NCBI RefSeq assembly: GCF_024223415.1
Contig: NZ_CP100500.1
Direction: 5' to 3' (one strand)
DNA: 64,000 bases
Source of the DNA: Escherichia coli
GTDB taxonomy: Bacteria > Pseudomonadota > Gammaproteobacteria > Enterobacterales > Enterobacteriaceae
The position numbers were made by a program, and so were the translations under genes. The stretch's first letter is position 1; the number at the start of each line of letters is the position of its first letter. The notes under the pieces were generated by a model. The model ran no database searches and was not told the DNA's origin. It was given only the letters and a program-made list of their open reading frames with translations. Below, piece after piece: positions 15,876 to 17,801 of this stretch.

Positions 15876-17285
15876 ATGAAATTTATAATGGCAAAGAATG
15901 TATTGGCAATGGCGGTTACCGGTGCGCTGTTATGTTACTCTGTGGGGGTTATGGCAGAAGAGAGTTTTAATGTAGATGGATATGAGGTTACTCTGTATGA
16001 TAATGGTGCGGCAGTAATATCAAAAGGTAATGATGTTAATCTTATTAATACTATTACTGGAGCTAATACAGGGCGTATTGTCCCGAATGATTCTATTACG
16101 CGTGCTATATTAGCAGCTCCTGAGAATGCTAGGCATATTGTTGCTCAGGATTTGCTAACTTACCCCATCTACTCAGATGCATTAAAAGCCGAAAACATCA
16201 GAAATATAAAAGCAGAAGATATAAAGTCCATTGTTGATACAAAAGAATCACTACAAAAAATAATCAAGCCAGAAAACAAGGATGATTATATCGCCGCTGT
16301 TAATGCTGGTGGTACCGCTGAGGATTTTATTAAAATTAGTAATACAACATCGGGATTGTCATCATTGTATAAAAATGTAGTTGAAGGCCAGAATTTTGTT
16401 CTGGATTCATCAGGCCGAATCACTGCTGACGGAAGGGCTGACGGAAATGCTCAGACAGTCCCTGTTAAAGAATTCGTCGTGGAGCTGGATAATCGTACCC
16501 GCAACCTTGGGGTTGAAGTGAAATCACAGGGAGACAGTCTGCGTGGTGAGATAGGTGGTGTATACAGAGATGCCCGTGCTCATACTGACAGTCAGGTCAC
16601 AGCAGTACGTGATGAACTGAAGGCAGAGGGAGACAGTCTGCGCGGTGAGATAGGCGGTGTATACAGAGATGCCCGTGCTCATACTGACAGTCAGGTTACA
16701 GCAGTACGTGATGAACTCAGCAGGGATATTATTGCAGGCACATCGGCAGCGGTGGCGTATACGGATGCATCTTCTCTTGCTCTTCAGGATGAAATAAAAG
16801 AAAAAGCGGATGAAACAGTTCAGGTTTCCCGGGCTTATACAGATAAAAGTGTACGGGATGTCCGTAAAGAAGCGAAAAGCCAGGCAGAACATCTCAGCGA
16901 TGTGCTTGTGAAGAACAGGGCGCAGACGGATGCAGCAATAGCCTCAAATACAGCAGCGATAAGGAATAACAGTCATCGTCTGGATTTGACGGAAGCCTGG
17001 CAGAAGATGGCGACAGAGAGAATGAATAATATGCAGGAGCAGATTAAAGAGAACCGGAAGGAGTTAAGGGAGAGTGCAGCCCAGAGCGCGGCACTGGCCG
17101 GTCTTTTCCAGCCATACAGTGTTGGAAAATTTAACGCGACAGCAGCCGTTGGTGGTTACCGTGATGAGCAGGCCATTGCGGTGGGCGTGGGCTACCGTTT
17201 CACAGAGAATGTGGCAGGAAAAGTTGCAGTTGCTGCAGGTGGGTCATCCGCATCGTGGAATGCTGGTGTGAATTTTGAGTTCTGA
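15876..17285 (+). CDS. Trimeric autotransporter adhesin, YadA/Eib-like (signal peptide, coiled-coil stalk, C-terminal beta-barrel anchor)
   Basis: N-terminal signal peptide [28 protein letters not shown]-terminus ..[46 protein letters not shown] is a YadA-anchor pattern ending in Phe. Confidence 0.75.
16529..16726 (+). repeat. In-frame tandem direct repeat, 2 x 99 bp (33 aa), in the adhesin stalk
   Basis: [30 protein letters not shown] occurs twice with near-identical DNA. Confidence 0.8.
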
Positions 17286-17345
17286 CAGGTCAGGATTTAG
17301 ATATCTGTCCCGGGGGAGTCCCCCGGGATATAATGAGGTACAGAG

Positions 17346-17801
17346 ATGCTGGATATAATCCTGGCGACGAGAGATATTTATTTTGAAAAAGCCCTGCGAG
17401 AGATATTTGGAACCGTAAGCAGTCGAATCAGATATATAGAAGATGCCATATCAGACAGAAGAAGGGTGCAGTCAGGCAGGTCATTCAGATATTATTTTGT
17501 ATTCTGTGATGATGAGTATACAGATATTGTTCGTATTCTTTTTACCGGAGAGGCCTGCTGTATTCTGAATAAGTCGATGCTGAATCTGAGAGCGGCCGGA
17601 GGTGTGTTGACGCTGGAAGAGCGCAGAGCGGTACTGAACCGGTATTACAGAGGTTTAAGTATTGCGGAGATTACAGAAGAGACGGGGCAGAATGACAAGA
17701 CGGTATACGGTCATCTTCGTCGTGCACTGCAGCGGTCTGGATTCCGGAAGGGGCGTTTTATAAAGGGGAGAGAAGCTGCGGGGGATTCAGGTGTTGAATA
17801 A
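17346..17801 (+). CDS. Putative transcriptional regulator with C-terminal LuxR/GerE- or sigma-70-region-4-like HTH
   Basis: C-terminus LTLEERRAVLNRYYRGLSIAEITEETGQNDKTVYGHLRRAL fits that HTH pattern; N-terminal about 90 aa unassigned. Confidence 0.45.
   Translation: MLDIILATRDIYFEKALREIFGTVSSRIRYIEDAISDRRRVQSGRSFRYYFVFCDDEYTDIVRILFTGEACCILNKSMLNLRAAGGVLTLEERRAVLNRYYRGLSIAEITEETGQNDKTVYGHLRRALQRSGFRKGRFIKGREAAGDSGVE

Follow-up and report, generated by a model that had tools for sequence, protein, structure and literature searches.

A prophage-borne relative of the Eib adhesins in Escherichia coli with an Eib-type anchor and gene order, a separate head family and no counterpart of the canonical IgG-Fc core

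The right end of a lambdoid prophage beside ompW/yciE/trp in Escherichia coli (RefSeq assembly GCF_024223415.1, contig NZ_CP100500.1) carries two adjacent genes on the same strand, one for a 469-amino-acid (aa) protein (15876-17285, +) and one for a 151-aa protein (17346-17801, +), here called the adhesin and ORF151 (for open reading frame). All positions refer to the window, which is the whole stretch of 64,000 nucleotides that was analyzed. A first-pass annotation had described the pair as prophage cargo consisting of a YadA/Eib-like trimeric autotransporter adhesin and a helix-turn-helix (HTH) protein, and had pointed to immunoglobulin (Ig) binding as known from Eib proteins. The locus therefore raises the question of how far the kinship to Eib proteins extends, and whether the two genes belong together. 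Our data make it moderately probable that the pair is a lysogenic-conversion ("moron") cassette of the Eib lineage, in which the 469-aa protein would serve as a type Vc surface adhesin acting in head- or saddle-mediated adhesion or autoaggregation, and ORF151 would serve as its regulator.

The adhesin has the build of a type Vc autotransporter, with an N-terminal Sec signal peptide as judged by inspection, a coiled-coil stalk, and a C-terminal anchor. The signal peptide (aa 1-27; 15876-15956, +), whose start matches the RefSeq start in strain Ch1, contains lysines in a basic n-region, a hydrophobic core and a VMA↓E cleavage-type motif, and resembles those of EibA, EibC, EibD and EibE. It is followed by the N-terminal head domain (aa 28-170; 15957-16385, +), a saddle-like unit (aa ~171-211; 16386-16508, +), and a long stalk, which begins with two tandem 99-bp repeats of 33 aa each (16514-16717, +; 2.1 copies with 93% matches in Tandem Repeats Finder), with 2 of the 33 residues differing between the copies. 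The remaining stalk to aa 410 (16718-17105, +) includes a 55-aa variable segment and an Eib/YadA-type lower coiled coil, which aligns to the stalks of YadA and Eib proteins. There are no prolines in aa 211-410, and in aa 211-345 hydrophobicity recurs with a period of 3.67 residues (z=3.8-5.2 vs shuffled sequences) and not with one of 3.5, which points to hendecad-type rather than heptad-type coiled-coil packing; the 33-aa unit corresponds to three hendecads. The anchor (aa 411-469 with the stop codon; 17106-17285, +) is matched over aa 411-469 by Pfam YadA_anchor (PF03895, E=3.1e-16), while the solved YadA anchor (PDB 2lme) matches aa 394-468 (E=1.8e-17), and the last residues are ...GVNFEF, so that the chain terminates in an aromatic residue. 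The NCBIfam YadA model also matches aa 321-468 (E=1.3e-18), with 67 bits that are far under its 750-bit family cut-off. The secreted protein with a signal peptide, a duplicated 33-aa segment and a YadA anchor ending in phenylalanine, as read in the first-pass annotation, was thus borne out. The open reading frame is a genuine gene and not a chance reading frame, and the variant is already present, unnamed, in public databases, where an identical 469-aa protein is deposited as "YadA-like family protein" (WP_254539420.1/UTJ28637.1).

The gene order around the adhesin was compared with the GenBank loci P-EibA, P-EibC, P-EibD and P-EibE (ECOR-9), all of which are arranged as orf-191, eib, stem-loop, orf-156 and orf-60. 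The order in the window matches this arrangement. The last virion gene before the adhesin is a 191-aa ORF (14862-15437, +), a homologue of ORF-191 and a synteny marker of eib-type loci, with 56-59% identity to ORF-191A/D of P-EibA/P-EibD; it matches phrog_1141, "tail fiber protein" (E=2e-61), and is annotated with DUF4376 in RefSeq relatives, in which the tail-fibre, DUF4376 and adhesin genes follow each other in matching order. The adhesin itself shows 57% identity to EibA in its last 118 aa (aa 352-469) and 39% identity to EibC/D in ~235 aa (aa 249-469); this part holds the anchor and the lower left-handed coiled coil of Eib type. EibA (P-EibA, E. coli ECOR-9, AF151091) is the closest in layout, as it is likewise prophage-borne and lies directly after orf-191, with a hairpin, orf-156 and a small membrane ORF next in order; it shares the ...GVNFEF end and a similar signal peptide with the adhesin, and is likewise "headless", with an N-terminal domain, no YadA β-roll, a saddle and a coiled coil (PMC12511318). 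The synteny and the Eib-type C-terminus, together with the colinearity of ORF151 with ORF-156 and the recurrence of the arrangement described below, indicate that the locus descends from an eib cassette. EibC, EibD and EibE agree with the adhesin in cassette position, anchor, and a saddle-like unit followed by a coiled coil, but they contain an Eib N-terminal domain, a YadA-like β-roll head and a neck, all three of which are missing from the adhesin. The structure of the EibD passenger (2XQH) was not matched in sequence by the adhesin with a threshold as loose as E<=10; the 2xzr fusion alone was matched, with E=0.21. We take the 2XQH deposit to cover EibD residues 160-418. YadA of Yersinia, the prototype type Vc adhesin, has a related anchor and lower stalk, but its head and neck are missing from the adhesin, and it is plasmid-borne while the adhesin is prophage-borne.

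The head domain differs most from the known Eib proteins. It gave no match to Pfam or to any solved fold, and the Pfam search of the whole adhesin returned no YadA head or stalk domain. Although a homology to the N-terminal domain of EibA/C/D was suggestive in a MAFFT alignment, it was rejected by hhalign, where the probability was 3.8% and no homology was detectable. Hence, the head is best regarded as a family separate from the Eib N-terminal domain, and not as a YadA β-roll. Members of this family were found only in E. coli/Shigella, and 6 of the 5426 complete E. coli genomes contain the head; three complete genomes besides the one studied here have it with 100% identity. The name "EibF" was absent from the database names of the 81 head-family clusters. 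Two relatives annotated as "YadA-like family", P0136 (415 aa) and P0134 (357 aa), belong to the same head family with 28-34% identity (E down to 3e-12), and share the first saddle-like unit and the Eib-type anchor. Their loci contain the same cassette with ORF-157/175, a small ORF and, on the opposite strand, dinI, the neighbor of P0136 being of the ORF-156 type. They differ from the adhesin in having two or three saddle-like units and in lacking the 33-aa repeat stalk.

Binding of IgG by EibD is said to have been mapped by Leo and colleagues in 2011 to about residues 384-418. In EibG the substitution D391A abolished IgG-Fc binding while chain formation was kept, and A392, next to D391, corresponds to a tyrosine in EibE/D (preprint 10.64898/2025.12.25.695649). 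In the GenBank EibD sequence the pair D387-Y388 is located inside GRTDRIDYAVG, and the EibA counterpart is RIDAAVG. From the preprint text and the GenBank sequence we infer that EibD D387/Y388 corresponds to EibG D391/A392, and we take the "D378" printed in the same preprint (10.64898/2025.12.25.695649) to be a slip for D387. A hidden Markov model (HMM) of the saddle and the IgG segment was then built from EibA/C/D/E and P0136, for which EibA as a control scored 130 bits. On the adhesin this model splits: its positions 3-33 match aa 177-210, which end in ...NRTRN, with a weak score of 8.1 bits, and its positions 42-60 match aa 352-370, while positions 34-41, which hold the RID(Y/A)AVG core, are unmatched and fall in a gap of the MAFFT alignment. 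Where the core would sit, between the saddle-like unit and the Eib-type lower stalk, the adhesin has ~140 aa of hendecad-type repeat stalk, which sets it apart from EibA, where the IgG-binding segment GRTDRIDAAVGAIDGRV directly follows the saddle. Residues D387/Y388 of EibD consequently have no counterpart, and canonical IgG-Fc binding by the adhesin is not predicted and appears unlikely. The saddle-like unit is repeated in P0134 and P0136, with the last unit in P0136 being a canonical Eib saddle. Within the same head family P0136 has the canonical GRTDRIDAAVG and P0134 does not, which shows the head and the Ig site to be independent modules.

These results narrow what can be taken over from the Eib proteins. 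The first-pass designation YadA/Eib-like stands for the synteny, the anchor and the lower stalk (57% identity to EibA, 39% to EibC/D), and it does not extend to the head or the IgG core; likewise, the profile search proposed there found the anchor and failed to find an Eib head (none in Pfam, 3.8% in hhalign). The term "Eib-like" is thus valid only for ancestry and the C-terminus. Ig binding had been raised as a possibility from the likeness to Eib proteins, but, as the RID(Y/A)AVG core is without counterpart, it cannot be deduced by homology here.

The relationship of the adhesin to genes with other heads became apparent from a blastn comparison with the locus of E. coli strain AZ159 (L006), whose adhesin has a YadA-type β-roll head and a different signal peptide. 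The two loci match at 15358-15604 with 97% identity and at 16539-18020 with 99% identity, while 15605-16538 is unmatched. The recombination breakpoints are sharp: that at 15604/15605 is intergenic, ~270 bp before the start codon, and that at 16538/16539 lies inside the first 33-aa repeat. The swapped cassette (15605-16538) therefore holds the signal peptide, the head and the saddle together with ~270 bp of promoter-proximal DNA, and the constant block (16539-18020) runs from inside the first 33-aa repeat through the anchor and ORF151 to the small ORF, ending 12 bp past it. The adhesin gene is best described as a recombinant mosaic, in which a rare head cassette has been joined to a stalk-anchor-ORF151 block shared with the much commoner β-roll-head genes. 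Such common adhesins, as represented by P0081 (452 aa), P0115 (515 aa) and P0057 (548 aa), are 89-96% identical to the adhesin from the 33-aa repeats to the C-terminus and have the same ORF151 neighbor and small ORF, but they differ in the signal peptide (MLKRRDAF...), the β-roll head with neck, and the 270-bp promoter-proximal region. They may be the "Yal" or "Cla" lineages of Kotaka et al. (2025); the preprint of Kotaka et al. and its supplements give no sequences or accessions for ClaA, ClaB and Yal, and tblastn against plasmids returned anchor-level matches only, which allow no conclusion on kinship to Saa or "Yal".

The stalk itself was variable. Among the best 120 database relatives, 26 have the head of the adhesin with 0-6 repeat copies, and 62 have the β-roll head with 2-4 copies; the 55-aa stalk segment is present or absent among the relatives. 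The stalk length varies as copies of the 33-aa unit are gained and lost. In E. coli TUM9803 (L001, 9219-11834) the adhesin has 436 aa with a single repeat copy, and the IS66-family insertion sequence ISCro1 has inserted into the DUF4376 tail-fibre gene that lies immediately before the adhesin gene. The 2.7-kb locus query was matched at least in part in 405 of the 5426 complete E. coli genomes, mostly over the stalk, anchor and ORF151, and in these 405 genomes the annotation was always "YadA-like family protein" followed by "sigma factor-like HTH". The order of adhesin, ORF15x, small transmembrane (TM) ORF and dinI is found again in lambdoid prophages, and also in one prophage remnant and in surroundings that resemble a conjugative element. 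The remnant is that of strain AZ159; a location of the pair outside prophages was considered for this strain and rejected, since the 3′ end of orf-191 is retained there. The P0134 locus (L010, GCA_902838015.1, CADFWR010000038.1, 5001-7200) adjoins genes of the type found in integrative and conjugative elements (DUF3438, DUF2895, DUF3487, DUF2976 and RAQPRD) and includes an ORF-175 of its own, an ORF of 42 aa and a remnant of the dinI type; it seems that the cassette was transferred to this site as one block.

ORF151 consists of a small α/β N-terminal domain followed by an HTH of the sigma-70 region-4/LuxR type at aa 87-130 (17604-17735), which was matched by Sigma70_r4_2 with E=4e-7, while the N-terminal ~85 residues had no Pfam match, in agreement with the unassigned N-terminal domain that the first reading had noted on this same-strand HTH protein. 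A complete sigma factor was considered and rejected, because only region 4 is matched and region 2 is absent, and the NCBIfam scores are far under the cut-offs; the N-terminus is predicted as (βα)4 and not as a helical sigma-2 domain. It may possibly be a degenerate receiver of the NarL/FixJ response-regulator type, which combines a receiver domain carrying a phospho-acceptor Asp with a LuxR/GerE HTH. Over aa 3-75 ORF151 weakly matches phrog_6585, a family of unknown function (E=3.3e-4), to which ORF-156D of the eib loci matches with E=4e-99. The protein is colinear with the ORF-156 proteins at 21-24% identity, that of P-EibA being only about 21% identical, and has in common with them the N-terminal M-x-(I/V)ILATR motif, as well as LT..E ... 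KTV in the HTH. ORF151 is best placed as a divergent member of the uncharacterized ORF-156 family (phrog_6585), and is most likely a DNA-binding transcription regulator of the cassette. Downstream lies a small hydrophobic ORF (17883-18008, +), by position the counterpart of orf-60, with 41 aa from a TTG start or 31 aa from the ATG at 17913. It had no PHROG match and is unannotated in RefSeq relatives, and by eye its C-terminal TM stretch (...F.L.VW...) resembles those of ORF-60 and of the corresponding ORF in the P0134 locus (L010_42); the ORF L007_57 was also compared. The encoded membrane peptide possibly acts together with ORF151. In the literature on ibrA/ibrB and the eibG promoter nothing usable on ORF-156 was found, and no function assigned to the ORF-156 family or to the orf-60-type ORF was found since the P-Eib deposit (Sandt and Hill 2000).

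The untranslated regions of the cassette were scanned for transcription signals. The 438-bp intergenic region upstream of the adhesin (15438-15875) is divided by the recombination breakpoint into 15438-15604, common with the other-head loci, and 15605-15875, which is part of the swapped head cassette. A Shine-Dalgarno-like AGGA is located 9 nt before the adhesin ATG, and the only short stretch shared with the eibD upstream region, as judged by shared k-mers, is TTAACAGGATAT, 6 nt before the ATG. A GC-rich hairpin just after ORF-191 (15451-15478) was found in a terminator-like scan; the A-run on its 5′ side reads as a T-run on the minus strand. The adhesin gene and ORF151 are separated by an 11-bp GC-rich hairpin (17306-17330, +; RNA fold -22.3 kcal/mol, z=-2.1). 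The canonical eib loci have a hairpin with a T-run at the corresponding position. The hairpin in the window has no U-tract, and co-transcription of the adhesin gene and ORF151 is therefore possible.

Taken with the knowledge of type Vc proteins, the data suggest how the cassette would work. The adhesin would be exported by Sec via its 27-aa signal peptide, and three four-strand C-terminal anchors would assemble, assisted by the β-barrel assembly machinery (BAM), into a 12-strand outer-membrane barrel, through which the passenger would be threaded. The passenger would then form a fibre of ~200 residues, first a hendecad-type coiled coil with the 33-aa repeats and then the Eib/YadA-type lower coiled coil, its length tuned by the repeat number, and would display at its tip the saddle-like unit and a globular trimeric N-terminal head. 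ORF151, perhaps with the small membrane peptide, would probably control the expression of the cassette. The missing IgG-Fc core, considered along with published domain dissections, makes adhesion or autoaggregation the likeliest activity: chain-like adhesion needs the head-to-saddle region (preprint 10.64898/2025.12.25.695649), and EibA, with an N-terminal domain only and no β-roll head, aggregates and forms no chains (PMC12511318). Serum resistance may possibly accompany this activity. The regulatory link between ORF151 and the adhesin would follow from the long-term co-retention of the pair.

Several points weigh against this interpretation, and some of them lend themselves to other explanations. 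The trimer and the 12-strand barrel are deduced from the homology of the anchor, the saddle assignment is weak, as it depends on an 8-bit HMM match and on intermediates, and no report of expression, localization or binding was found for the adhesin or its close relatives. The missing canonical IgG site is also compatible with Ig binding elsewhere, which may occur for example in the 33-aa repeats. The adhesin could on this account be a genuine immunoglobulin-binding Eib protein that contacts Fc through other stalk segments, such as the repeats or the YTD segment, and in this way confers serum resistance. Its ancestry and synteny with the eib loci agree with such a function, as does the fact that EibD binds IgA via a stalk region distinct from the one that binds IgG (PMC7247746). 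Some database entries that share the stalk carry the name "immunoglobulin-binding protein", but such names were assigned automatically, not from experiments. The YTD of the adhesin (aa ~321-323) aligns with that of EibC/D in MAFFT, but YTD is a general motif of trimeric autotransporter coiled coils. The core IgG segment is unmatched in the HMM and 2XQH is not matched even at the permissive threshold, while in EibG the single D391A change is enough to remove Fc binding, and the Eib-related Cla adhesins, which are without the IgG residues, do not bind IgG Fc (preprint 10.64898/2025.12.25.695649). We therefore regard Ig binding through other stalk segments as unlikely. It is less likely still that the gene is a remnant, silent or decaying, with no expression in the lysogen, for example because of H-NS silencing of the low-GC head region. 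The GC content across 15500-16500 is 0.38, "partial" stands in the annotation of many relatives, and repeat-mediated deletions occur frequently, all of which could be expected of a remnant; against this, the 469-aa frame is intact, with signal peptide, anchor and Shine-Dalgarno-like sequence, the head is kept without a change in the three other complete genomes, and the "partial" entries are mostly contig ends of draft assemblies.

The strongest competing explanation concerns ORF151, which might be unrelated to the adhesin, as an independent prophage gene modulating phage or host transcription that shares an inherited block with it. From the stalk to the small ORF the loci are 99% identical, and hence they do not count as independent evidence of functional coupling; the co-occurrence within this stalk type amounts to one inheritance event, and the linkage could result from block inheritance. 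A strong hairpin separates the two genes, and the canonical loci have a full terminator there. In 15438-15875 the sigma-70-like promoter signals were equal to the shuffle expectation and no operator was detected, nor did the compared alternative upstream regions share an operator-like motif. The similarity of ORF151 to ORF-156 is also weak in pairwise comparison (E~1e-4 at the 21-24% identity given above), and its structure model is of low confidence (pLDDT, the predicted local distance difference test, of 62), which applies to the predicted (βα)4 fold as well. On the other hand, the pairing is kept across different contexts and despite deep divergence, with the regulator-like proteins at 21-24% and the anchors at about 57% identity, which suggests selection for the pair. 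An ORF151 that merely travels with the adhesin is for this reason somewhat doubtful, and an adhesion cassette with ORF151 as its regulator is the explanation that we prefer. A more far-reaching version of the latter, which we hold to be rather improbable, is that the adhesin, the ORF-156-family DNA-binding protein and the single-pass membrane peptide form a three-gene surface module that is a unit of inheritance and function, and that the head is a new adhesive fold with a non-immunoglobulin ligand. If this were so, the peptide would tether or antagonize the DNA-binding protein in an anti-sigma-like manner, adhesin expression would follow a signal from the envelope or the growth state, static growth being an example, and interchangeable head cassettes with their own promoter-proximal DNA would join a constant stalk-anchor-regulator block.

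The flanking genes define the prophage setting of the pair. Upstream there is a lambdoid tail ORF of 1302 aa (9075-12983), for which RefSeq relatives have tail tip protein J at the matching position, and then a 601-aa tail fibre with collagen-like repeats (13042-14847, +), which precedes the ORF-191 homologue. The collagen-repeat fibre and the DUF4376 protein thus lie directly before the adhesin, and its first description as prophage cargo right after the tail-fibre genes was correct. The N-terminal domain of the 601-aa protein is of the phage-tail type, and its collagen-like G-X-Y arrays consist of a 45-bp repeat with 14.3 copies (13507-14134) and a second array (14425-14572); collagen-like proteins have been described in prophages of pathogenic E. 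coli (PMC3368898). Downstream of the small ORF, on the opposite strand, a DinI-like gene (18185-18433, -; NCBIfam PRK10597 with E=6e-18, phrog_189) is the conserved last gene of the module, and it is in the matching position in the loci L007-L009. LexA-box-like palindromes, CTGT-N8-ACAG, are located at 18449-18464 and 18477-18492, directly upstream of its start; the 64-kb window contains 3 such sites vs 0.7 expected. Further on, the C-terminal part of an anti-repressor (18812-19204, -; phrog_2379, E=2e-56) corresponds to a frameshifted ORF6N-domain pseudogene in strain Ch1 and seems to be a gene in decay at the edge of the prophage. A comparison with strain Ch1 places the host junction at ~19800-28250; it contains a truncated ompW, then yciE, yciF, yciG and the trp operon, from trpA (21718-22524) through trpE. 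The lambdoid tail genes on one side and the dinI gene, the anti-repressor fragment and host DNA on the other place the pair at the right end of the prophage. An anti-phage defence function of the locus was also considered and rejected, as PADLOC gave no match for the adhesin, ORF151, the small ORF or the anti-repressor fragment.

Eib-type adhesins have been linked to serum resistance, aggregation and chain-like adhesion, and EibG to mouse lethality in strains of E. coli that produce Shiga toxin and are negative for the locus of enterocyte effacement (preprint 10.64898/2025.12.25.695649), and databases tend to name anything with an Eib-type C-terminus "immunoglobulin-binding". The locus described here shows the Eib cassette to be a recombining platform, in which one stalk-anchor-regulator block is combined with at least two unrelated heads. 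As the block is shared by unrelated heads, and one head family occurs both with and without the IgG segment, the function of these proteins should be read module by module, and the anchor is not proof of Ig binding. The head domain, being rare among complete genomes (6/5426), would be a marker that can be tracked in poultry and human isolates. The value of the locus lies in this modular picture and in the genes it points to, rather than in a new kind of system. The condition-dependent control of Eib expression is poorly understood, and the ORF-156 family and the orf-60-type membrane ORF are obvious candidates for a part in it.

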